A stretch of DNA of 32,000 bases from Promethearchaeota archaeon (GTDB lineage Archaea > Asgardarchaeota > Lokiarchaeia > Sigyniarchaeales > Promethearchaeaceae), in assembly GCA_016933055.1 (NCBI GenBank), contig JAFGBS010000019.1, forward strand, positions 1-32,000, read 5' to 3'. The translations under genes were made by a program, and so were the position numbers. A model generated the notes under the pieces. The model saw only the letters and a program-made list of their open reading frames with translations. It was not told the DNA's origin and made no database searches. Below are positions 17,228 through 28,366 of the stretch, piece after piece. The first letter of the stretch is position 1; every line of letters begins with the position of its first letter.

Positions 17228-17299
17228 GCACCGATAGTCTAGTGGTTAGGATCGAAGCCTGCCACGTTTCGGAGCCGGGTTCGAATCCCGGTCGGTGCA
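17228..17299 (+). tRNA. tRNA-Gly(GCC), no intron
   Basis: GCACCGA-TA-GTCTAGTGGTTAGGAT-C-GAAGC-CTGCCAC-GTTTC-GGAG-CCGGG-TTCGAAT-CCCGG-TCGGTGC-A. Anticodon at 17261-17263. Confidence 0.95.
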
Positions 17300-17338: not shown

Positions 17339-18112
17339 TTATTCTTTTGTTCTTAAGAACCGGGGGATATGGAAACCGCATTCGGGGCAGAATGCAGACC
17401 CTTCCGCAATATCTTTTTTACACTCAGGACATGATATTAATGATTCTACTTTTTTTGTCACTATTGATTGTGGCACACTAATTGATGGTGATATGTGGTT
17501 GAGGGATTCAGTGGATAATGATTCTGTAGTTGGTGCAGTTTTTTTCGTTCTTAAATGAACTGATCGAACTGAAATCCCTATTATACCGATGATCCACACG
17601 GTTCCTATTATAAGGAGTAATGGCAGTCCCATAATTATGGTAAATCTACCCATTGGAATTTCAAATACTACTTGAGGGATTTGGGTAGTGGCATTAATGT
17701 AATATAGTGTAAATTGATACTGGTATGAGTTGGGAACTACCATCCATTTTATTGGGACCATGATCTCTATTTGGGAATTATCATTCGAGATAATTAACAC
17801 ACTGGAATTAACTGGTAGAATTTTATCCGCATTATTTCCTAAACCCAATAAAGAATAACTCATGTTAATAGGAATGTTAGTTGAAATATTGAGAAGGAAG
17901 CGTGATCGAAACCAACCAAAAGATTGATTTTCCAAAATCTGCACCTCTATGAAACTAGGTTCTTGAAGATCAGAAGCATTATTAGGTTTTGATTCAACCT
18001 CAACCTCTTGACTAATCGGGACAATACTAATCAAAATTAAGACGAACAAGCATACGTCTATAAAAGTGCGCCGTTTGGAATTCGTAAAATCCTCTCCACT
18101 ATTTATTAACAT
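17339..18112 (-). CDS. Membrane protein with an extracellular domain and a C-terminal zinc ribbon
   Basis: N-terminal hydrophobic segment (FIDVCLFVLILISIVPIS), a second TM (IIMGLPLLLIIGTVWIIGIIGISV), an S/T/P-rich linker, then CPECKKDIAEGSAFCPECG. Confidence 0.75.
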   Translation of the reverse strand: MLINSGEDFTNSKRRTFIDVCLFVLILISIVPISQEVEVESKPNNASDLQEPSFIEVQILENQSFGWFRSRFLLNISTNIPINMSYSLLGLGNNADKILPVNSSVLIISNDNSQIEIMVPIKWMVVPNSYQYQFTLYYINATTQIPQVVFEIPMGRFTIIMGLPLLLIIGTVWIIGIIGISVRSVHLRTKKTAPTTESLSTESLNHISPSISVPQSIVTKKVESLISCPECKKDIAEGSAFCPECGFHIPRFLRTKE

Positions 18113-18144
18113 AAATAACGAATATATTACTTAAATAAAATTGC

Positions 18145-19140
18145 TTACACATAAGGAGTCAAATCGATAAATTCTTGAGATAAATTACCGAATTTCATCA
18201 TGATACGGAGATTTTCCGTTATTTTTCCTATTTTAAACACCATTAACCCGTGCTCTTTACCTAGTTTTTGCACTGATTTGTAATCTGAAGAACGTACAGT
18301 TACTAAAAAAGCAGAAGTGAGATACATTTTCACAAACTCCACTAATTGAAATTCCTTAGTGATTAGATGAGGGGGGGTTTTAAGCCATCCAAGATCTAAT
18401 ACAGCTCCCTTTTTGGAATATTGGAGTAACAATATCAGTGTTCCAATTATTCCTCCATTGGAGATATCTTTCGAAGAAGAAACCAGTTTTCGGTGAGCCA
18501 ATTTAGACATAATTTTTCTTTTTCTTAGTATTTCATCTTTTTCTTTGAATGTAACAGTATCCCAGTAATATTTACTGGATTTCCCTACATGACCATCAAA
18601 ATCTGCTATCACCACAATCAAATCTCCATTTCTGGCTCCTCCTGCAGAAACATAATCTTCCTTTTTGATCTTTCCAATAACAGTGGCTGAAACTCCCACA
18701 TTTGAAGTTTTATCAGACGTATGACCTCTTACTAATGGGATTTCAAATCGATGAGTTGCTTCCAATAAACCATTTAAAAGTTGTGTTCGTATTTCTGGTT
18801 GATCAGAACTTATAATAGAACTTGCTGCTATTGGAGTGCCTCCACATGAATAGATATCATCCGCTCCTGCCATAATAGCACTAAATCCGGCTGCCCAAGG
18901 TGATTTTTTGGAGAATTCCTCTGTGATAGAATCCGTTGTGATTAATAACAAGTCTTGACTGTTCTCATTAAAAATAATACCAGCGGCATCCTCTCCAATT
19001 GAACTAAAAACATGATTTGAGTGATAACTTTCCCGACGCACTTTATCCATAATTGGAAATAAAAGTGTCTTCCGTGTCAAATTTTCAAAATTCTGCAAAT
19101 TTTCGATAAAACTCGCTAAAAAGGATCGATCTTCACTCAT
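18145..19140 (-). CDS. AIR synthase-related protein (PurM/ThiL fold; sll0787 / methanogenesis marker 2-like)
   Basis: Motifs: IGEDAAGI, ITTD, WAAGFSAIMAGADDIYSCGGTPIA, PLVRGHT, SKDISNGGIIGTL. Confidence 0.75.
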   Translation of the reverse strand: MSEDRSFLASFIENLQNFENLTRKTLLFPIMDKVRRESYHSNHVFSSIGEDAAGIIFNENSQDLLLITTDSITEEFSKKSPWAAGFSAIMAGADDIYSCGGTPIAASSIISSDQPEIRTQLLNGLLEATHRFEIPLVRGHTSDKTSNVGVSATVIGKIKKEDYVSAGGARNGDLIVVIADFDGHVGKSSKYYWDTVTFKEKDEILRKRKIMSKLAHRKLVSSSKDISNGGIIGTLILLLQYSKKGAVLDLGWLKTPPHLITKEFQLVEFVKMYLTSAFLVTVRSSDYKSVQKLGKEHGLMVFKIGKITENLRIMMKFGNLSQEFIDLTPYV

Positions 19141-19259
19141 CTTTGCTCAACAATTCATATTTACGTAACGTGTTCTTTACCATTTATAGGAATACATCAA
19201 GTGAAGTGTTACCTAATAAAGTATTTTATCCTAACAATTTTTGCGGGTGTTGATGGATT

Positions 19260-20906
19260 ATTTCATCAGAAGAAAAATTCCAAGAAATCTTAGTAACAAT
19301 TCGAGGTGGTACGATTAGAGGTGTTGTTTTTTCCAATTATGATGAATTTGGATACCAAAACTTGTATTCCTTCCCTCCTGCAGTTGAAAATCTTGACACA
19401 CATCTATCAATCCAAAGCTCTCTATTTAAGCAATGGCAATTAGAAAAAGACCAATTTTTCAAAAAGACATTTAATGGACCCGAAATACCCCCCATAAAAC
19501 GTTTTGGTGGATTAAGTGACATAATGTTATTCACTGAACGAGATTTTCTTCAGATAGCCGTGAAAAGTATCAGTTTACTCATTGGAGAAAGGGTTCTGGA
19601 TAAAGATCCTTCCCTTTTGAGGATGCAATTTTATGGGATATTACCCTACCCAGATTTTCAAGTTTATTCCTACACCTTCTTCCGGTTTTATTCAGTAATT
19701 GGAGAAAATATCCCGAGAGCATGCACATTTTCCCTCCTTATCGATAAGAATAAAAAGAACTTCATTTATGAACATCACAAATTTCTTCAGCAGTTGATTA
19801 ATGATACAGTAAATTCACTCGTCGTTCATTTGGAACAAGGAGAATGGACATCGGAAAACATCTCTAAAGCAATTGTCGAAAAGCTACATGGTACGATCTT
19901 CCACTTTTTTCGAAGTTTGTCAAATCTTAGTAAGACAGATCAATTTATAGCACCTCTTACATCTTATAGGACTAAAAAAATCGTATTCACAGGGCTGAAA
20001 CACAGTGAAATTAACAGATTTCTAATTTCTCTCAAACAATGCTCTGCTAAAAAACAAAGATCAGATATAGAAACAGAGATCCCTATTACTCGTCTTTTTG
20101 AGACAACAGTTTTACGATGGGACAGTAACGAAGATGGGGAAAGTTACTTGGACAATATTGATCTCCTCTACTATTTCGTGGATGGAACAGATGTATATAA
20201 GATAGAAGAAGATCAAATCTTTTATAGCAAGATTATCGAACACCTCGGCAAGAAGGAAATTAGGATTCCTATTTTAGTAATTATATCCAAAAATGGTGAA
20301 GATATAATAGATTCCCTCGCCTCACACCAAACTATCTTACGGATAAAAGAACAATTTCAAAGCTTCACATCGAAACATGAGTATCAAGTACGATTTTTCG
20401 AGACTGATAAATTCTCCCCATCTGCATGTTTATCAGTTTTTTCGGAAGGATTATCCTTGCTAATGGGCACCCAAAATGACATAACTCCTATTCTAACAAG
20501 ATTTTCTGATAAGTGGAATGTACCTGCATTATTTTTATATAATCAAACCGGCTTAGCCTTCTCTAAATATATCTCAAAGAACTTGAGCATGAACTATCCC
20601 TCTCCCCAAGGCATCGAATTAACTGGCACTAACCTCGTTTCAATCTTTGATATCAGTAAACCATTGGGTCATAAATCCCCTAATTCTGAAATTTCTGTAG
20701 AGATGGGAAAAAATTACAGCGCAATTTTGAAAAAAATCAATTGGTTTATTCCTTTTTATATTCTTGCTTTCACTTCCCGTTCTACATCAGAATTTGATAT
20801 TGCCAATCTTAATGTATTGGGCATGGAACTGATTGATCTATTTGGGAATAAATCAAATATAAGTTTTCCATATAAAGATCATGGTAAAAAAACCGAAGTT
20901 TGGTAA
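19260..20906 (+). CDS. Multidomain protein: longin/uDENN-like N-terminus, degenerate Arf/Rag-like GTPase domain, roadblock/longin-like C-terminus; start uncertain
   Basis: The frame is open from 19254, 36 codons before the TTG at 19362, and encodes ISSEEKFQEIL..IRGVVFSNYDEFG. The middle has KIVFTGLKHSEIN / LLYYFVDGTD / IPILVIISK. The C-terminus has ALFLYNQTGLAFS. The domain calls are pattern-based. Confidence 0.55.
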   Translation: MSSEEKFQEILVTIRGGTIRGVVFSNYDEFGYQNLYSFPPAVENLDTHLSIQSSLFKQWQLEKDQFFKKTFNGPEIPPIKRFGGLSDIMLFTERDFLQIAVKSISLLIGERVLDKDPSLLRMQFYGILPYPDFQVYSYTFFRFYSVIGENIPRACTFSLLIDKNKKNFIYEHHKFLQQLINDTVNSLVVHLEQGEWTSENISKAIVEKLHGTIFHFFRSLSNLSKTDQFIAPLTSYRTKKIVFTGLKHSEINRFLISLKQCSAKKQRSDIETEIPITRLFETTVLRWDSNEDGESYLDNIDLLYYFVDGTDVYKIEEDQIFYSKIIEHLGKKEIRIPILVIISKNGEDIIDSLASHQTILRIKEQFQSFTSKHEYQVRFFETDKFSPSACLSVFSEGLSLLMGTQNDITPILTRFSDKWNVPALFLYNQTGLAFSKYISKNLSMNYPSPQGIELTGTNLVSIFDISKPLGHKSPNSEISVEMGKNYSAILKKINWFIPFYILAFTSRSTSEFDIANLNVLGMELIDLFGNKSNISFPYKDHGKKTEVW

Positions 20907-21930
20907 CTATGTGGTTGCATTAGGGGAATTGATGTTACGTCTAAAATCACCCTTAACCCAGCGCTTTTTACAAAATTCCCTCTTTGAAGCAACATTTGGC
21001 GGTGCTGAAGCGAATTTTCTTGCTTCACTTTCAAATTATAATGTTCCAACCCGTTATATTACGTGTTTACCAGATAACGATATCGCTAAGAATGCATTGA
21101 GATTTTTGCACTCTCTGAATATTGATACGTCTTGCATTTCCTTTTCAGAAGGAAGAATGGGTCTTTATTATTTAGAACAAGGATCAGGTCCCCGACCTTC
21201 ACAGGTCATTTATGATCGAGCCTATTCGAGCATTTCTCAGTCAAAAATTAACCAATTTCAATGGGATGCTGTATTTGCTGATTCATCGTGGTTCCATACT
21301 ACCGGAATTACCGCTGCGTTGTCACAAAATACGGCCGATCTATGTGAATATGCCATGAAAGAAGCAACGAAAAGAAATATGAAAATCTCCTGTGATTTAA
21401 ACTATCGGAAAAATTTATGGAACTATGGCAAAACTCCAAAGCAAATTATGAAAAAATTACTCTCTTACGTGAATGTTGTAATTGCGAATGAAGAAGATAT
21501 ACAAAATACATTAGAACTGGATAGGTATGATGAATCAGAGAAAATTAGTGCACATAAATACCAACGACTAGCTGAAAATGTTGTGGATGAATTTCCGAAC
21601 ATTGAAGTAGTCGCGATTACCCTACGAGAAAGTTTCTCGGCAGATTATAATGAATGGGCAGCACTTTGTTATGTTTCAGATCATAAGAAAGTGTATATAT
21701 CACAAAAATACCAATTAAAGAACATTATAGACCGAGTAGGTGCTGGAGATGCGTTCGGTGCTGGTTTTATCTATGGATTGCTGATGGAAAAGACGTATCA
21801 AGAAGCATTAGAGTTTGGAGTTGCTGCAAGCGCATTGAAACATACTATTCCAGGGGATATTAACCGTGTAACAGCACAAGAGGTAGAAAATCTCATTGGT
21901 GGCACAGGATCTGGAAGAGTGGTAAGATAA
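20881..21930 (+). CDS. kdgK: 2-dehydro-3-deoxygluconokinase-like PfkB sugar kinase
   Basis: Motifs: ALGELMLRL, FGGAEAN, GRMGLYYLEQG..RPSQVIYDRA, WFHTTGIT, SCDLNYRKNLW, IANEED, DRVGAGDAFGAG, LKHTIPGDIN. An alternative GTG start lies at 20911. Confidence 0.85.
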   Translation: MVKKPKFGNYVVALGELMLRLKSPLTQRFLQNSLFEATFGGAEANFLASLSNYNVPTRYITCLPDNDIAKNALRFLHSLNIDTSCISFSEGRMGLYYLEQGSGPRPSQVIYDRAYSSISQSKINQFQWDAVFADSSWFHTTGITAALSQNTADLCEYAMKEATKRNMKISCDLNYRKNLWNYGKTPKQIMKKLLSYVNVVIANEEDIQNTLELDRYDESEKISAHKYQRLAENVVDEFPNIEVVAITLRESFSADYNEWAALCYVSDHKKVYISQKYQLKNIIDRVGAGDAFGAGFIYGLLMEKTYQEALEFGVAASALKHTIPGDINRVTAQEVENLIGGTGSGRVVR

Positions 21931-21931
21931 A

Positions 21932-22711
21932 ATGGGGAAAACAAAAAAAATAGCTTTAATTACCGGTTCCATTCGAGGAATTGGAAAAGCAATAGCAAAA
22001 GAGATGCACTCCCTTGGCTATTCTCTCATAATCAATGGGGTTTCCCAACATTCTTTACCCGAATCATATTTAGATGAGTTTTCGGGATCAAAAGAAACTA
22101 TCCACTATATTCAAGCAGATATATCCATTGTCGAGGATAGACAAAAATTAGTGGAAAAAATCATCCAGCTTAACCGAATTGACTTATTAGTAAATAATGC
22201 TGGTGTTGCTCCTAAGGAACGTAATGATATATTAGTAGCTACGGAAACCAGTTTTGACCGAGTTATGAACACAAACTTGAAAGGTCCATATTTTTTAACC
22301 CAACAAGTAGCCCAACTCATGATTCAGTTCAAAAACAATCACTTAATTGACTATAATCCAAAAATAATCAATATTGGTTCAAATTCTGCCTACACATCCT
22401 CACCCAATCGAGGAGAATACTGTCTATCCAAGGCAGGAATGGCAATGATGACTAAATTATACGCCGATAGACTTTCAGAATTTAACATTCCTGTTTTTGA
22501 AGTTCGTCCGGGTATTATAAAGACTGACATGACAAAATCTGTCGAAAAGAAATATGATACTCTATTTAAAGAGGGAATAACTCCTTTTTCGAGGTGGGGT
22601 ACACCCATAGATGTAGCAAAATGTGTCAGTGCAATCGTTCAAGGGTACTTTCCCTATAGTACAGGTCAAGTCTTTAATGTAGATGGAGGGTTCCACCTAA
22701 AGCGATTGTAG
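21932..22711 (+). CDS. SDR-family oxidoreductase (PRK12745-like)
   Basis: Motifs: ITGSIRGIG, LVNNAGVAP..R.DIL, NLKGPYFLTQ, catalytic YCLSK, EVRPGII.TDMT, RWGTP.DV, FPYSTGQVFNVDGG. Confidence 0.9.
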   Translation: MGKTKKIALITGSIRGIGKAIAKEMHSLGYSLIINGVSQHSLPESYLDEFSGSKETIHYIQADISIVEDRQKLVEKIIQLNRIDLLVNNAGVAPKERNDILVATETSFDRVMNTNLKGPYFLTQQVAQLMIQFKNNHLIDYNPKIINIGSNSAYTSSPNRGEYCLSKAGMAMMTKLYADRLSEFNIPVFEVRPGIIKTDMTKSVEKKYDTLFKEGITPFSRWGTPIDVAKCVSAIVQGYFPYSTGQVFNVDGGFHLKRL

Positions 22712-22720
22712 GGATTAAAA

Positions 22721-24721
22721 ATGATCTTGGATGGACATACTCTTTATCGCATTAATACTTTAGTTATAGGTTCAGGCACAGCAGGTATGAATGTAGCTAT
22801 ACATTTTGTAGAAGAAGGTGGATCTTCTGATGATATCCTAATCGCTACTGAACTGCTTGGGGGTGGAACCTCATTTAATGCAGGATCAGATAAGCAAACC
22901 TATTACAAACTTTCTTTGGCAGGCAATCAGTCTGATAATATTTACAAAATGGCAGAAACTTATTGGAATGGCGGTTCCATGCATGGAGATATTGCCTTAA
23001 TTGAATCTGCAAATTCAGTACGGGAATTCATGCATCTTGTCTCATTGGGGGTACCGTTTCCTACTAACAAGTATGGTGAGTATGTTGGATACAAAACCGA
23101 TAACGATCCATTACAAAGAGCGACATCGGCAGGACCCCTAACTTCAAAATTAATGGCCGAAGCATTACTAAAAAGAGTAACACAATTAGGAATTCAAATT
23201 TGCAATGAAGTATATTGCTGTAAGATTTTTGATTTAGGTTTGCAAAAACTCGTTATTGGCTTTCAAATTGATGATCTTTTTCAAGATATCTCTAAAAACT
23301 TTATGAAAATCGTTAATCGGAACTTAGTTCTATTTATTGTGGATAACCTTATAGTTGCTACGGGAGGTACTAGTTGTATCTATAGACATTCGGTTTATCC
23401 AAAGAGTCAGTGGGGGAGTTTAGGTGTATTGATCGATTACGGTTGTGAAACTCAAAATCTCACTGAATCTCAGTTCGGGATCGCTTCTACAAAAGTTCGT
23501 TGGAACCTTAGTGGTACCTATCAACAAGTTCTTCCAACTTATCGCTCATATGGGGAGAAGGAAACGATTAGGGATGCTGTAGAATTCCTAAATCCATGTT
23601 TTCAAACTAAATCCCATCTTCTTAATGCTATTTTTCTGAAAGGTTATCAATGGCCGTTTAATGTGGAACGGATAAGTGACTATGGTTCCTCTCTAATTGA
23701 TCTCTTAATTTTTAAAGAAATTACACAGAAAGGACGAAAAGTAGTATTAGATTATACTACGAATCCGTGCAATCTATCCATTAACCAAATTTTGGAATTA
23801 CTTGACGAGGAATACGCGAATTATCTACTGAAATCGAAGATTACTGCAGATCCTTTATATTCTACTCCCATTAGTAGACTTCGGAAAATTAATCCTAAGG
23901 CTTATGATTTATACTTGTCTCGGGGGATCGATCTGGAGCGGGAACAATTGGATATCTCAGTCTGTGCCCAACACAGCAATGGAGGAATCTCGGGTGATAT
24001 TTGGTGGGAATCTTCCAGACCAAGAGTTTTTGTAATTGGAGAAGCAAATGGAAGCCATGGAATTCATCGGCCAGGCGGTGCTGCACTTAATTCTGGTCAA
24101 GTAGGAGGTTTAAGGGCAGCTTTGAAAATTCTGCATGAGTATTATCCCCAACAAAAACAGGAAAAATTTGAATTGGACTCTCAGCATATCTTGGAATTGG
24201 TTAATGGGTACTGTAATTTGATAGCTGAAATAATTCACCATAAATCCAACAAGATTTACCCTTCTCATGTACTTGAAATCATACAGAACCGTATGGCGAA
24301 ATATGGATTTATACTTCGAACAGATTCGAATTTGAAAACGGAAGTTGGAAAAATAGATCATGAAATTCGCACCTATTTTTCAAGGTTATCACTTCAGAAT
24401 CCAACGTGGGGAGAATTTATATATTCTATACGAGTGTATGATGCGTTAATCACCCATGCTGCATATTTACATAGTATTCTTACCTACATTGCTGAAAAAG
24501 GGGGAAGCAGAGGTAGCTATATTATTGACCAATCAGGAAACCGCATTCCACATAATCCAACGCTTGATGAATACATTGTGAAAATCCGGTGGAATTTGGA
24601 AGAAAATTCTAGAAATTTTTCTTCGTTTTTAGAAAAGCGAAAAAATATTCCTCAAGATGAAGATTGGTTTGAAACTGCTTGGCACGTATTTGATTCCGGC
24701 GCAGTATTTAAAGAAGAATGA
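22721..24721 (+). CDS. FAD-binding oxidoreductase of the SdhA/FrdA/NadB superfamily, uncharacterised subfamily
   Basis: Motifs: VIGSGTAG, ATGG, QHSNGG, FVIGEANGSHGIHRPGGAALNSGQVGG, GGSRGS; subfamily-type GSDKQTYYKL and GYKTDND..QRATSAGPLTSK. Confidence 0.8.
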   Translation: MILDGHTLYRINTLVIGSGTAGMNVAIHFVEEGGSSDDILIATELLGGGTSFNAGSDKQTYYKLSLAGNQSDNIYKMAETYWNGGSMHGDIALIESANSVREFMHLVSLGVPFPTNKYGEYVGYKTDNDPLQRATSAGPLTSKLMAEALLKRVTQLGIQICNEVYCCKIFDLGLQKLVIGFQIDDLFQDISKNFMKIVNRNLVLFIVDNLIVATGGTSCIYRHSVYPKSQWGSLGVLIDYGCETQNLTESQFGIASTKVRWNLSGTYQQVLPTYRSYGEKETIRDAVEFLNPCFQTKSHLLNAIFLKGYQWPFNVERISDYGSSLIDLLIFKEITQKGRKVVLDYTTNPCNLSINQILELLDEEYANYLLKSKITADPLYSTPISRLRKINPKAYDLYLSRGIDLEREQLDISVCAQHSNGGISGDIWWESSRPRVFVIGEANGSHGIHRPGGAALNSGQVGGLRAALKILHEYYPQQKQEKFELDSQHILELVNGYCNLIAEIIHHKSNKIYPSHVLEIIQNRMAKYGFILRTDSNLKTEVGKIDHEIRTYFSRLSLQNPTWGEFIYSIRVYDALITHAAYLHSILTYIAEKGGSRGSYIIDQSGNRIPHNPTLDEYIVKIRWNLEENSRNFSSFLEKRKNIPQDEDWFETAWHVFDSGAVFKEE

Positions 24722-24779
24722 TATATTGAATATACAAAACCACATAGGAGAAAAACTCTAATATATACGTAAGTGAAGG

Positions 24780-25364
24780 GTGATGATGAAGAGCGATCCA
24801 AATATGCTTAAACTTTGCGTTATGGGAGAAGGAGGGGTAGGAAAAACCACTCTGGCGAACCGTATATTAACGGGAGTATTCAATCCGGCGACAAAGATGA
24901 CCATAGGCATAGATTTCCACTTATTTCAAATGCAAATCTTGGATCCACGTACCTCTGATGAAAATTTGCTCCCAATTTCTCTCGCGATTTGGGATTTTGG
25001 TGGCGAGGATAGATTTCGATTCATGTTACCTCGATTTGTGAAGGGAGCGAACGGGGGTCTTTTACTATTTGACCTGACCAGATATAGTACAACAAAATAT
25101 TTGAAGGAATGGTTGAACATTTGGAATGAAAATGCAGAACCCCATACTCCATTGTTTTTAGTTGCTTCCAAACATGACAAAATTAATCCCACGTCTCAAA
25201 ATATGATAGAAGTACAGATAAACGAATTGAAGAAATCTCTAAACATCCAAAAACATTTTCTAATCAGTTCTAAAAGTGGATTTATGGTGGATACTTTAAT
25301 TGATTCAATTGCGAAAGATATGTGGCTATTCAAAAATAATATCAAAATATCGCTAACAGAATAA
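24780..25364 (+). CDS. Rab-like small GTPase
   Basis: G1 GEGGVGKTT, G2 MTIGIDF, G3 WDFGGEDRF, GANGGLLLFDLTR, G4 ASKHD, G5 ISSK. No C-terminal Cys. Confidence 0.9.
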   Translation: MMMKSDPNMLKLCVMGEGGVGKTTLANRILTGVFNPATKMTIGIDFHLFQMQILDPRTSDENLLPISLAIWDFGGEDRFRFMLPRFVKGANGGLLLFDLTRYSTTKYLKEWLNIWNENAEPHTPLFLVASKHDKINPTSQNMIEVQINELKKSLNIQKHFLISSKSGFMVDTLIDSIAKDMWLFKNNIKISLTE

Positions 25365-25371
25365 ATTTATC

Positions 25372-27009
25372 TTGTTTTTACGCTTAGTACAAATTACAAG
25401 CAAGTTGCAGATGGTTTCAATGGGAAAAGAATTAACACAAGAAGAGAAAGAAATTACCAAGCGTCAAAAATTAATCGAGGGCTGGGATCAACTCGCATTA
25501 AAAAATAGCACTGTATTTATTGCAGGTGTTGGAGCACTTGGATGTGAAATTGCAAAAGACTTAGCCCTTTGTGGTGTTGGAAAACTGATTTTATGCGATT
25601 TGGATACAATTGAAACCTCAAATCTATCTAGACAAATGTTGTTTTATAAAGGAGATGAGGGTCGACCTAAGGCAGAAGTTGCAGCTGAAAGAGTAAAAAG
25701 AATGAACCCTTTTATAGAAATTCAATATTATTTTAAACCAATCCAAGAACTTCCCATGGAATTGTATAAATCTTGTGACCTCATCATAGCAGCCTTAGAT
25801 AACTTTAAAGCTCGTATTGATCTTAACAAAATCTGTTTGGATCTGAAGATACCAATGATCGATGGTGGTACACTTGGAATGGAAGGTCATGTTCAAGTAA
25901 TCATTCCCGAAGGAACTGTGGACAGTTCTGGAAATCTTCTGGAATATGGGAATCAATCCCGAATGATTGACACTCTCACTCAAAATAAATTATGGGAACT
26001 GGAAGAGTCGAAATATCCGGGCTATTTCGCTGCGATGCGACAAATAGAAGAATTGGAAGAAAAAATAGAACGATTAACTAGTGTGTTTATAGAACCTGTA
26101 GTAGAAAAAATTCGTACACAGACTGCCAAGGAACTTCAGTCCCATTCTAACAATAATTATACTCCTTGTTATCGGTGTGCTGTCCCGGTACCCCCTCCAA
26201 TGGGCAAAATGGCTGCTGCTTGCACCCTTAAAGGTATACCACGGAATAGAATACAATGTGCATTACGAGCTGAAGTGTTATATCATAATCGAGAAGATAA
26301 AGATGTTGATTTCTCGAAAATGGAAGAAGTACAAAAACTGACCCAAATCGCTCAGAAGGAATTGGACTCACTTCGAACCCGTGTATTAAGTGAAGGAATT
26401 AGTCCTGAAGAACAATCTCTCATTAGTACAGAGGAAATGGAAGAACGGAAAAAAAATATTAAAATTACCTTTGGACCAGATTTCTCTCCGGAAGATATGG
26501 AAAATATTCTACAAAATAAAATGCCTGCGATTCAAACAGTAAGCTCTGTGATTGCATCAATTGAATCTCAAGAGGCTCTAAAAATTTTATTTCGGATGAA
26601 AGGCATTGATGTGGGGGAGATTATGGATCCTCCCTATGTGAATTACAATGGGGTTTTTGGTCAATTTGATGCCATTCCCTTATCCCGCCGCGATGATTGT
26701 GTAGCATGCGGAAAAATCGTAGGTGTGGAAAATTTAAGCCTCTTAGTACCTAAAGATGCTACATTTGACACTTTATTTGAATTGATCAAATCTCAGAAAT
26801 ATAACATGAATCCGGATAAATGGTCCATAAGCAACCCAATTACGAAAGCCTATGTTTATCTACCGGGAAATCCCAAATCACCCGGGTTAAAGGATGAAGT
26901 CGCACAAAGTGGCATTGAATCCGGAACTTTTTATACATTTTCCACAGCACCTGCTAATGCAATCGATGGAATCCATACATTCAACATACGAATTGAATTT
27001 GCTGAATAA
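25372..27009 (+). CDS. Ubiquitin-like protein activating enzyme E1, Uba3/Uba2-like, with catalytic Cys domain and C-terminal ubiquitin-fold domain
   Basis: GVGALGCE, DLDTIETSNLSRQMLF, two Zn-binding CxxC motifs (CYRC, CVAC), AACTLKGIPRNRIQC (compare Uba3 PMCTIASMPRLPEHC), MPAIQTVSSVIAS. The real start may be the ATG at 25411 or 25420. Confidence 0.85.
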   Translation: MFLRLVQITSKLQMVSMGKELTQEEKEITKRQKLIEGWDQLALKNSTVFIAGVGALGCEIAKDLALCGVGKLILCDLDTIETSNLSRQMLFYKGDEGRPKAEVAAERVKRMNPFIEIQYYFKPIQELPMELYKSCDLIIAALDNFKARIDLNKICLDLKIPMIDGGTLGMEGHVQVIIPEGTVDSSGNLLEYGNQSRMIDTLTQNKLWELEESKYPGYFAAMRQIEELEEKIERLTSVFIEPVVEKIRTQTAKELQSHSNNNYTPCYRCAVPVPPPMGKMAAACTLKGIPRNRIQCALRAEVLYHNREDKDVDFSKMEEVQKLTQIAQKELDSLRTRVLSEGISPEEQSLISTEEMEERKKNIKITFGPDFSPEDMENILQNKMPAIQTVSSVIASIESQEALKILFRMKGIDVGEIMDPPYVNYNGVFGQFDAIPLSRRDDCVACGKIVGVENLSLLVPKDATFDTLFELIKSQKYNMNPDKWSISNPITKAYVYLPGNPKSPGLKDEVAQSGIESGTFYTFSTAPANAIDGIHTFNIRIEFAE

Positions 27010-27011
27010 CG

Positions 27012-27620
27012 ATGGTAAATTTTGAGGATATTGTAGACAAGTTGCGTTGTAAGCGTCTGTTCATTTTTGATTTCGATGAAACCTTAATTAATTTGAATGT
27101 TGATTGGGAGCAATTAAAGAAAGAACTCTCAAAATTGGTTAAGGAAAGATTTGGAATTACTATGAATTTTACTCCCATTATGGAAAAATTAGAGTACTTG
27201 AAAAATCAGATCACCGAGGAGGAGTATTCCTCCATTATGAATCAACTCAAACAAGGAGAGATAAATGCATTACAAACAAAATCCACTATCCAACCGGTAG
27301 GTCTTGAATTACTAAAAGAAATTCATTCAAATTTGATCCAAAAGTCACAAGAATCCAGATATATTACAATCCTTTCGAATAATTATACAGATACTATTCG
27401 GATGGGTGCTAAAAAATATGGGATTGATAGATTTATAGCATCGTATGTAGGGCGTGATATGGTAACGAAAATAAAACCTGAGATCGAAGGAATAGAAAAA
27501 ATACATAAGCAATTCCCAGATGTAAAGAAATCAGAAATTGTGTATTTTGGGGATAGTGAAAAATATGATAAAATGGTTGCACTGGCATATGGCGTAGACT
27601 TTTTTTTAATTAAAAGTTGA
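27012..27620 (+). CDS. HAD-superfamily hydrolase (phosphatase)
   Basis: Motif I IFDFDETL, motif II ILSNN, KIKP, motif IV YFGDSEKYD. Confidence 0.85.
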   Translation: MVNFEDIVDKLRCKRLFIFDFDETLINLNVDWEQLKKELSKLVKERFGITMNFTPIMEKLEYLKNQITEEEYSSIMNQLKQGEINALQTKSTIQPVGLELLKEIHSNLIQKSQESRYITILSNNYTDTIRMGAKKYGIDRFIASYVGRDMVTKIKPEIEGIEKIHKQFPDVKKSEIVYFGDSEKYDKMVALAYGVDFFLIKS

Positions 27621-27691
27621 TGGAAAATCCATTTTTTTATAAGTCCCAATAAATAAATTTCAGTAACTACTAAAGTACAACGATAAATCGC

Positions 27692-28366
27692 ATGACAGAT
27701 AAGAACGAAAAAAAGAAAAAGAAGAAGAGAAGATCGCGAAAATCAGACAATCCCGATGAATTTGATGAGAAAGATGTGATCGATGACGATGACGATGACG
27801 ATCCGATGAAATATTTCCAAAAAATGATGGATAGCTTGGGCAAGAGAATGGGTGTTGATTTTTCAAAAGTAGTACGGGATTTAATGAAACAATTCTACCC
27901 CGATATGGAAGATATGGATGAGGAAGAATTACAAAAGTTTATGAAAGAAAACCTTGCTCGAATGGGAGCTAAACCTGTGGTATTTGGATTTAATATGACT
28001 CCTGGTAAGGATGGATTTCCAAAATTTGAGCGTTTTGGAAATGTAGAACCCAAACCTTACGGTGAAACGGTTGTCAAGGACGAAAGAGAACCCTTAGTAG
28101 ATATTATGGAAGAGGAAAATGAAGTTATTGTAGTAGCAGAGATTCCTGGATGTGCTAAGGAAAATATTGAATTAAAGGCTACGGATTCGTCATTAACTAT
28201 TATTGCATGTGATGAAGAAGATGTGAGAAAATATAATACTACAGTAGATCTCCCCTCTAGCATCAATCCCGATCATGCTCGCGCGCGATATCGAAATGGA
28301 ATTTTAGAAGTTAAATTAGAGAAAGTTCAAGGGAAACATAAAGGGAAAAAAATCTCTGTGGATTGA
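27692..28366 (+). CDS. hsp20: Archaeal small heat shock protein Hsp20 with a charged N-terminal extension
   Basis: Motifs: PVVFGFNM..G.P.FERFGN, REPLVDIMEE..VIVVAEIPG..KENIEL, LPSSINPD.ARARYRNGILEVKL. Confidence 0.9.
   Translation: MTDKNEKKKKKKRRSRKSDNPDEFDEKDVIDDDDDDDPMKYFQKMMDSLGKRMGVDFSKVVRDLMKQFYPDMEDMDEEELQKFMKENLARMGAKPVVFGFNMTPGKDGFPKFERFGNVEPKPYGETVVKDEREPLVDIMEEENEVIVVAEIPGCAKENIELKATDSSLTIIACDEEDVRKYNTTVDLPSSINPDHARARYRNGILEVKLEKVQGKHKGKKISVD
27782..27802 (+). repeat. In-frame (GATGAC)3GAT microsatellite encoding D7
   Basis: Read directly from the sequence. Confidence 0.8.

Follow-up and report, generated by a model that had tools for sequence, protein, structure and literature searches.

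The stretch of Promethearchaeota archaeon DNA analysed here (contig JAFGBS010000019.1 of assembly GCA_016933055.1, positions 1 to 32,000, hereafter the window) carries on its forward strand, at 19260-20906, a gene of the longin-GTPase-roadblock (LGR) family. The gene is designated LGR-A, and its paralog, which lies on another contig of the same genome, LGR-B. The predicted product combines a longin domain, a Rag-like G domain and a C-terminal roadblock domain (CRD) in a single chain, and its nucleotide-binding motifs are degenerate to an extent seen in no other family member examined. Weighing fold, conservation, gene neighbourhood and a predicted partner, we consider it reasonably probable that LGR-A is a working pseudo-GTPase subunit of a conserved Rag-like module. 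The gene and its parts are as follows:

19260-20906, + strand: LGR-A gene, longin + Rag-like pseudo-G domain + roadblock, 548 aa when read from ATT (frame, homologs, tree, folds)
19260-19262, + strand: ATT in place of the ortholog's TTG start; initiation here is probably near-cognate, unless the start has been lost (alignment with the G001 ortholog, locus L023)
19260-19949, + strand: longin domain, residues 1-230 (AlphaFold2 model; structural matches; 65-69% identity to clade mates)
19389-19517, + strand: low-confidence insert from longin strand 2 to helix 1, residues 44-86 (predicted local distance difference test score, pLDDT, <50)
19971-20465, + strand: Rag/Gtr-like G-domain fold with eroded motifs, residues 238-402 (Foldseek; model; no Pfam match)
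19992-20015, + strand: P-loop remnant GLKHSEIN (G1), with Gly250 changed to Glu, Lys251 to Ile and Ser253 to Arg relative to the family
20118-20138, + strand: G3/switch II remnant WDSNEDG, without DxxGQ and with 10-13 switch II residues deleted relative to all homologs
20286-20297, + strand: G4 remnant SKNG, where most family rows have (S/T/N/H)K.D
20400-20414, + strand: G5 remnant ETDKF, where most rows have ETSIF
20466-20849, + strand: roadblock domain (CRD), residues 403-530, a predicted dimerisation module (Foldseek; complex model)

Domain folds and nucleotide-binding motifs of LGR-A

The full-length AlphaFold2 model of LGR-A falls into three parts, with a mean pLDDT of 73.6. The longin domain is laid out as two strands, the disordered insert (44-86), a helix, three strands and two helices, and the most conserved motifs of the family lie in its helix 1 (KS.SLL.GE) and strand 3 (FYGILPYPD). 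Modelled alone, this N-terminal domain reaches a pLDDT of 76.5 and a predicted template modelling score of 0.75. In a library-wide structural search its best match is the longin of the Lokiarchaeal Roadblock-Longin protein 8yqg (Z 16.4, 150 residues, 2.6 Å), followed by C9orf72 (Z 12.7), Lst4 (12.4), FNIP2 (12.1), FLCN (11.7) and the GATOR1-complex chain 8fw5_C (10.0). Longins of the FLCN/C9orf72 type outrank those of TRAPP, SNARE and adaptin proteins (Z 7-10.6), Foldseek agrees, and by these model comparisons the longin of LGR-A is closest to the folliculin-type group. DENND1A matches via its longin part only (Z 10.0, 124 residues), and central or downstream DENN modules are absent after the longin of LGR-A, the chain continuing as a Rag-like G domain and roadblock. 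At the end of the disordered insert, a clade-conserved PP.KRFGGL..DI (residues 77-88; 19488-19523, + strand) may be a short linear motif.

Residues 240-402 are modelled, with pLDDT mostly 80-90, as a Ras-like alternation of six strands and helices, and residues 403-530 follow the helix-strand-strand-helix-three-strand-helix pattern of roadblock domains. Over residues ~238-548, Foldseek aligns ~310 columns with Gtr1/Gtr2, RagA/RagC and LokiRagO/LokiRagM (E 1.5e-14 to 1e-11; template modelling score by target 0.59-0.72), and the roadblock also matches MglB (6hjm_Q, E 1.1e-5). The initial annotation, made from the letters of the window and its translations, had read the protein as longin/uDENN-like, G domain and roadblock, a reading that the AlphaFold2 models, the Foldseek matches and the Z scores of the structural search show to be correct. 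The strings on which it was based could all be located in the frame 19260-20906 (+): GVVFSNYDEFG..LYSFP, GILPYPD..YSYTFF, KIVFTGL, LLYYFVDGTD and IPILVIISK, as well as GLKHSEIN (residues 245-252), the W-D pair (287-288), SKNG (343-346) and the C-terminal string ALFLYNQTGLAFS. Sequence-level searches are far less informative: Pfam and NCBIfam scans of the protein assign no family, with no Pfam family at E <= 1; phmmer against PDB sequences gives only Arl3 (E 0.25-1.5, residues 294-357), which is too weak for use; and a hidden Markov model profile of the longin against PDB sequences gives only 8yqg (E 0.22), with no FLCN, NPRL2 or SMCR8 chain.

The nucleotide-binding motifs were compared across an alignment of 35 full-length family members and ~20 orthologs read directly from related genomes. 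The P-loop GL..(S/T/A/G)GK(T/S/N)S is present in 33 of the 35 rows and reads GR in one further row, and GLKHSEIN occurs in LGR-A only. GK is kept in all ~20 further orthologs, which leaves LGR-A as the sole case of Gly-Lys loss among the ~55 members examined, the GR row aside. The switch-I Gly of L-G-T-T is replaced by Glu in LGR-A, while the switch-I Thr-Thr and the strand-3 W-D are retained. At the 46 columns conserved to at least 85% in the other 34 members, LGR-A deviates at 10, seven of which belong to G1, switch I, G4 or G5; its clade mates deviate at 2-4. The erosion of nucleotide motifs that the initial annotation had described is confirmed by this 35-member alignment. Bit scores against the Gtr1_RagA profile (cutoff 22) run from 84.9 in P0021 through 60.8 in P0014 to 30.3 in P0003, and LGR-A has no match.

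Some of these changes are shared more widely. Roughly half of the family retains an intact DxxGQ, which is absent in the clade of LGR-A and its sister clades, and an Asn at the Mg-binding Ser/Thr position (GKN) is found in the four clade mates of LGR-A and in P0024 of a sister clade. The same substitution appears in PDB titles as the RagC mutant S75N, bound to GDP. Over the shared N-terminus, P0003 is identical at 61 of 65 positions to the fragment from G001, a genome of the same genus as the source whose contig breaks off after codon 65 of the gene, and the AIRS-family protein encoded next to LGR-A is 66% identical between the two genomes. The near-identity of P0003 and the G001 fragment implies that the intact P-loop is the state of a sister species and that the full loss took place within the genus.

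The sequence of LGR-A is identical in three samples, namely a sediment metagenome (2021), which is the probable source, and two hot-spring metagenomes. Over 19000-21000 the window agrees letter for letter with a 196,707-nt Logan contig (depth 19) assembled from the run that is its probable source. The two hot-spring metagenomes, from 2017 and from two other studies, contribute short contigs that match it at 100% identity over 19886-20203 and 20550-20654. Agreement among these independent contigs excludes an assembly artefact as the origin of the degenerate P-loop codons (19992-20015), and the same strain or species evidently occurs in several samples. The start region of LGR-A is covered by the source run only.

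Reading frame, family and gene neighbourhood

The open frame spans 19254-20906 (+), preceded by a TGA at 19251-19253 and closed by the stop codon at 20904-20906, with the 3' end of LGR-A overlapping the start of a PfkB kinase gene (20881). Position 19260 carries ATT, and the earliest in-frame ATG, GTG or TTG is the TTG at 19362, where the open reading frame (ORF) lister begins LGR-A. In G001, where the divergent AIRS gene is also present, the TTG start of the ortholog aligns exactly with ATT 19260; the Met start of most other orthologs corresponds to ATC (19287) in LGR-A. Residues 1-34 (19260-19361) are conserved in homologs and make longin strands 1-2 in the models. Between LGR-A and G001, codons 2-34 give nonsynonymous and synonymous divergences (dN and dS) of 0.23 and 1.12, that is, a dN/dS of 0.21, an estimate confined to these codons, synonymous sites being saturated at 50% protein identity and dS exceeding 1 already within the genus. 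This ratio points to protein-level constraint on a segment that lies upstream of the first canonical start. By homology, the start at 19260 is the correct one, yet its codon is non-canonical, and translation probably begins at this near-cognate ATT.

A genome-wide habit of non-canonical starts was considered and rejected: only 28 of 2358 long ORFs have at least 40 start-less leading codons, and normal starts were found for the other GTPases checked. Nor is there support for a frameshift introduced by sequencing, correction of which would bring the out-of-frame ATG at 19253 into frame: the Logan contig is identical, although as a product of the same run it is not independent for that spot. A scan for sigma-70 promoters and terminators is uninformative for an archaeal host, and two metatranscriptome runs of the source study contain next to no words of the stretch, with no bearing on expression.

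A word-indexed search returned 22 homologs, all from Promethearchaeota or Lokiarchaeota where named, which match PF04670 (Gtr1_RagA) and mostly also PF00025 (Arf) and resemble LGR-A with E values down to 1e-155 and 50% identity. An exhaustive search of 1.84 billion representatives gave only 74 clusters at E <= 1e-3. Of the 41 related Lokiarchaeial genomes, which represent four families of the order, 40 encode the family, most often with two paralogs, one of ~500-580 and one of ~475 residues. In the maximum-likelihood tree of the 35 full-length members, 23 rows form group A and 12 form group B (support 100/99); LGR-A falls inside group A, in a 100/100 clade with P0003, P0006, P0007 and P0008.

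The position of the gene is marked by its upstream neighbour:

18145-19140, - strand: AIRS-family gene (methanogenesis-marker-2 / sll0787-like), divergent neighbour of LGR-A, marking positional orthology

The AIRS-family protein is nearest to the methanogenesis-marker-2 and sll0787 families, with scores under their cutoffs. Its gene is directly divergent from LGR-A in G001, G002, G004, G009, G010 and G021 and in the metagenomic loci of P0006 and P0014 (L025, L026), that is, in every relative checked, and this conserved neighbour establishes, by position, that the window gene is orthologous to LGR-A across the whole order. Further upstream (17228-17299, +), a tRNA-Gly (GCC) gene separates a hybrid histidine kinase gene from a zinc-ribbon membrane protein gene.

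In at least 17 related genomes the A and B paralogs lie 4-20 kb apart on one contig in divergent orientation. The interval in G021 holds genes for GR (a Rag-like GTPase-roadblock protein), a zinc-ribbon-roadblock protein, and SLOG, NERD/Mrr and ATP-cone proteins; that of G010 holds a GR ortholog together with NERD/Mrr, SLOG, SCP2 and GDPD genes, and in both genomes a transglutaminase-like gene lies beyond B. The ancestral block, in the order LGR-A / AIRS / zinc-ribbon membrane protein / SLOG ... GR / zinc-ribbon-roadblock / (NERD) / LGR-B / transglutaminase-like, is split between two contigs in the source genome. C27, which includes the window, carries the zinc-ribbon membrane protein, AIRS and LGR-A genes (window 17339-19140 plus LGR-A), and C11 carries GR, zinc-ribbon-roadblock, LGR-B, transglutaminase-like and winged helix-turn-helix protein genes (L024:567-6142). 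That LGR-A moved out of its cluster into the AIRS neighbourhood was rejected as an explanation, AIRS adjoining LGR-A order-wide; it is the GR/LGR-B part that sits on the other contig.

The LGR-B of the source genome (L024:2797-4161, equal to C11 29796-31160, +) keeps GKT and HKFD and has lost DxxGQ (WDYKPKE). The GR gene (L024:567-1532, equal to C11 27566-28531, +) encodes intact GLDSAGKTS, DLGGQ and HKLD motifs and has no ATG, GTG or TTG before its P-loop, the first canonical start lying 99 codons past the upstream stop; the GR ortholog of G010 has a normal ATG. Near-cognate initiation on two genes of one module, LGR-A and GR, is therefore a possibility in this genome.

Predicted partner, proposed mechanism and competing explanations

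Complex prediction for LGR-A residues 13-532 with the LGR-B of the source genome gives a median interaction prediction score from aligned errors (ipSAE) of 0.71 (runs 0.66, 0.71 and 0.73), against 0.00 for the best control. Of 80 solved complexes 58 attain the ipSAE mark applied, as do 2 of 110 mismatched pairs; this calibration is only rough here, our own alignments having served as input. The runs share at least 75% of contacts, with a partner pLDDT of 76-77. The first predicted interface involves longin helix 1 and strand 3 and joins residues 98-132 of A to 46-84 of B, the lowest-error pairs being A 126-129 with B 67-72; the second joins the CRD strand 477-483 of A (with helix 447-469) to 397-405 of B (with 373-395), spanning A 447-486 and B 373-407 overall. 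The model thus supports an LGR-A/LGR-B heterodimer formed via longin and CRD. Its first interface falls on the most conserved motifs (KS.SLL.GE, FGILP.PD), which would explain why the longin is the slowest-evolving part of the protein. Rag CRD dimers and longin dimers have already been solved, so the pair may also have passed by likeness to them.

We propose that LGR-A belongs to a Rag-like module conserved in Lokiarchaeia, which in related genomes also comprises LGR-B, GR and the zinc-ribbon-roadblock protein. The G domain of LGR-A would keep its fold without the residues for phosphates, Mg and the guanine base, and most likely, to judge from the sequence, no longer binds or cycles nucleotide. 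LGR-A probably still serves as a fixed-state structural and regulatory subunit that dimerises via longin and roadblock, with LGR-B as the model-supported partner or, as a candidate, LGR-A itself. Switching would then be left to one or more partner GTPases, namely LGR-B, with its GKT and HKFD kept, and/or GR. The erosion appears to have proceeded stepwise, from loss of DxxGQ in the wider clade through the change of the P-loop Ser/Thr to Asn in the immediate clade to loss of G1, G4, G5 and part of switch II within the genus. A bolder version of this scheme, which we regard as a speculative extension and rather doubtful, would make LGR-A/LGR-B an obligate two-interface heterodimer, a single-chain-fused prokaryotic counterpart of the Rag heterodimer and the folliculin-type longin heterodimer, in which the A subunit is moving from switch to fixed partner and the source species represents the end point.

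Several observations weigh against LGR-A as a working pseudo-GTPase subunit of such a module. The closest orthologs keep GK and SK.D, and the loss is young and found in one species only. LGR-A and LGR-B lie on different contigs (C27 and C11) in the source genome. LGR-A is without a canonical start and without a Shine-Dalgarno-like motif (TGGAT, as against AGGAG in G001), and a gene missing both is what an early pseudogene would be expected to look like; the modest extra divergence of its G domain could fit a short neutral decay. Nucleotide binding is retained by some GTPases despite aberrant motifs. The modelled surfaces could also be used by a homodimer or by another paralog, and the complex prediction might also accept a protein closely related to the true partner.

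The most direct challenge is that LGR-A is an early-stage pseudogene, switched off by loss of its start and ribosome-binding motif and now decaying, with the G-motif losses as the first damage. Such a history would account for ATT and ATC standing at both ortholog start positions and for the change of AGGAG to TGGAT, for the fact that all five G motifs are affected in the source species only, and for a terminal branch that is the longest of its clade (0.65 vs 0.21-0.40 for the clade mates); the GR gene of the module, too, is without a canonical start in a genome where such cases are rare. The start-less GR gene, however, has perfect G motifs, so a missing ATG, GTG or TTG is alone no proof of decay in this genome. 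All 548 codons are open in a gene of 34% G+C in which 5% of point changes give a stop, the two remaining forward frames are interrupted by 33 and 50 stops, and after 0.1 neutral substitutions per site the G domain and CRD would remain open with p ~0.01. The deviations of LGR-A cluster at nucleotide-contacting residues and are not spread across all conserved columns, and the low dN/dS falls precisely in the segment before the first canonical start. Nor is the longin more diverged than that of the orthologs. Its identity to the outgroup clade is 38.5% in LGR-A and 37.7-40.8% in the clade mates, compared with 32.7% and 39.7-43.0% for the G domain and 20.0% and 22.9-26.3% for the CRD; divergence is thus not accelerated in the longin, clearly accelerated in the G domain and slightly in the CRD. 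Because the longin is as conserved as in the orthologs, the frame is open and the upstream segment is constrained, a working pseudo-GTPase is likelier than a dead gene, and the pseudogene explanation appears unlikely. The initial annotation had held that orthologs with intact G motifs would make the gene a decaying allele: such orthologs do exist, but a decaying allele is not the best reading of a gene whose longin shows no extra divergence and whose frame is intact.

Two further explanations concern what the G domain does and on what it acts. LGR-A might be a nucleotide binder with a non-canonical pocket, holding GTP/GDP or another ligand without the P-loop Lys and the NKxD Asp and still switching. 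A few atypical GTPases bind nucleotide despite degenerate motifs, the G-domain fold of LGR-A is modelled with pLDDT 80-90 in strands and helices, and its switch-I Thr-Thr and strand-3 W-D persist. This explanation has to contend with the joint loss of the G1 Gly-Lys and the residue next to it, the G4 Asp and the G5 Ser, with a shortened switch II, with the failure of any Pfam G-domain model to match even at E = 1 and with the accelerated divergence of the G domain, and we hold it to be very improbable. The remaining explanation is the model of the initial annotation, in which LGR-A is a longin-based adaptor, resembling a guanine nucleotide exchange factor or GTPase-activating protein (GAP), for a GTPase encoded downstream:

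24780-25364, + strand: intact Ras/Roc-type small GTPase, the client proposed in the initial annotation; module membership not supported (Roc/Ras Pfam match; synteny)

This GTPase is indeed intact, and in ortholog loci whose LGR-A is 50% and 34% identical its gene is again found 4 kb downstream with orientation unchanged, the GTPase itself being 61% identical. Longin dimers serve as platforms for small GTPases in eukaryotes (PMC3747258; PMC12290439), which also counts for an adaptor. Three unrelated metabolic genes, on the other hand, separate LGR-A from the GTPase, whose best homolog lies ~340 kb from LGR-A in G010, ~280 kb in G009 and on another contig in G004, while AIRS stays beside LGR-A in all three; order-wide, it is LGR-B, GR and the zinc-ribbon-roadblock gene that are repeatedly found close to LGR-A. 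The linkage of LGR-A and the GTPase is common to near relatives only, along with many unrelated genes. Action of LGR-A on this GTPase consequently finds no support, synteny being limited to close relatives and absent from G010, G009 and G004, and the adaptor model, which partly overlaps with the pseudo-GTPase subunit favoured here, seems quite improbable. The wider gene order of this part of the window (SDR, FAD-binding, Ras/Roc GTPase, ThiF-type E1, HAD and HSP20 genes; 21932-28366, +) is kept in L025 and L026, whose LGR-A is 34-50% identical; the PfkB kinase gene (20881-21930) is found in L025 and not in L026.

Comparison with known systems

Nutrient signalling in eukaryotes is under the control of Rag GTPases and their longin-domain regulators; research on the relatives of these proteins in Asgard archaea looks for clues to the origin of the machinery. 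LGR-A adds to this field a natural and recent dead-pocket LGR, for which the P-loop-bearing sister species offers a comparison of what the G domain contributes, and it stands at the end of a graded erosion series across clades, in which DxxGQ is lost, then the P-loop acquires Asn, then the loss is full. The model-supported pairing of A and B, together with the neighbourhood of LGR-A, GR, zinc-ribbon-roadblock and LGR-B genes, names concrete partners. If the two-interface heterodimer were true, the genus would hold an active-versus-dead pair for the study of asymmetric Rag-type dimers and of pseudo-GTPase origins. The locus further draws attention to two genes of a single module that may be translated from near-cognate start codons.

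The closest described proteins are those of Ca. Prometheoarchaeum syntrophicum MK-D1, of which Tran et al. (2024) modelled 74 small GTPases, cataloguing the L-G-R architecture among them (PMC10933270). The L-G-R proteins of MK-D1 have the same domain order as LGR-A, with a Rag-like G domain close to Arf, and LGR-A is a homolog and positional ortholog of the LGR family of the related Lokiarchaeial genomes. Since this architecture is already catalogued (PMC10933270) and the family occurs in 40 of 41 related genomes, the suggestion of an undescribed system, made in the initial annotation, had to be abandoned. The described members keep the P-loop GK, whereas LGR-A has lost G1, G4, G5, part of switch II and the canonical start; in the literature on Asgard Rag structures, Roadblock-Longin proteins and Asgard pseudoGTPases no account of a dead LGR was found. 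The locus most likely presents a known three-part architecture in a lineage-specific dead-pocket variant, and not a new system.

The Rag/Gtr proteins (RagA/B-RagC/D; Gtr1-Gtr2) and LokiRagO/LokiRagM (PDB 8yl2, 9m28, 8zla), which are the top structural matches, share with LGR-A a G domain followed by a CRD, and the predicted LGR-A/LGR-B dimer uses a roadblock strand-strand and helix interface like that of Rag heterodimers. LGR-A differs from Rag/Gtr proteins in its additional N-terminal longin, in having no Gtr1_RagA match and in having no intact G1, G3, G4 or G5, and, in comparison with eukaryotic Rag/Gtr, it is without a known TORC1/Ragulator context.

The best eukaryotic fold matches of its longin belong to FLCN-FNIP (Lst7-Lst4), GATOR1 Nprl2-Nprl3 and C9orf72-SMCR8 (Z 10-12.7), and in the predicted complex the two longins pair via strand 3 and helix 1 in a manner reminiscent of the FLCN-FNIP, Nprl2-Nprl3 and C9orf72-SMCR8 heterodimers. 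Unlike these longin GAP complexes, LGR-A has no DENN or other such C-terminal module, and there is no match at the sequence level. A Gly-Pro before strand 2, next to the arginine finger, is reported to be specific to FLCN, NPRL2, SMCR8 and C9orf72 and to occur in some Asgard longins (PMC12290439). In the LGR family this position is G-P in all 30 other members and G-Y (FGYQN) in LGR-A and its four clade mates. LGR-A has an arginine, R153 (P-R), just before strand 5, at a position occupied in group A by R, K, H, I, S or N. In group B, to which the LGR-B of the source genome belongs, A-R-G is conserved in the loop between strands 4 and 5 (D-E-L-A-R-G-K in LGR-B); this loop may correspond to that of FLCN R164 and Nprl2 R78. 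LGR-B also has a sub-threshold Pfam Folliculin match (E 0.016, residues 81-158), and its A-R-G loop lies outside the confident contacts of the complex model. A GAP built into LGR proteins is, on these sequence features, a lead and not a finding.

PseudoGTPases such as the pG domains of p190RhoGAP and CENP-M keep the G fold and have lost the motifs. LGR-A resembles pseudoGTPases in general in its predicted Ras-like fold without G1, G3, G4 and G5 and in a presumed scaffold or dimerisation role. What sets it apart from the others is that the active ancestral state is still present in a sister species of the same genus, which would make the passage from GTPase to pseudoGTPase in LGR-A a very recent and datable transition.

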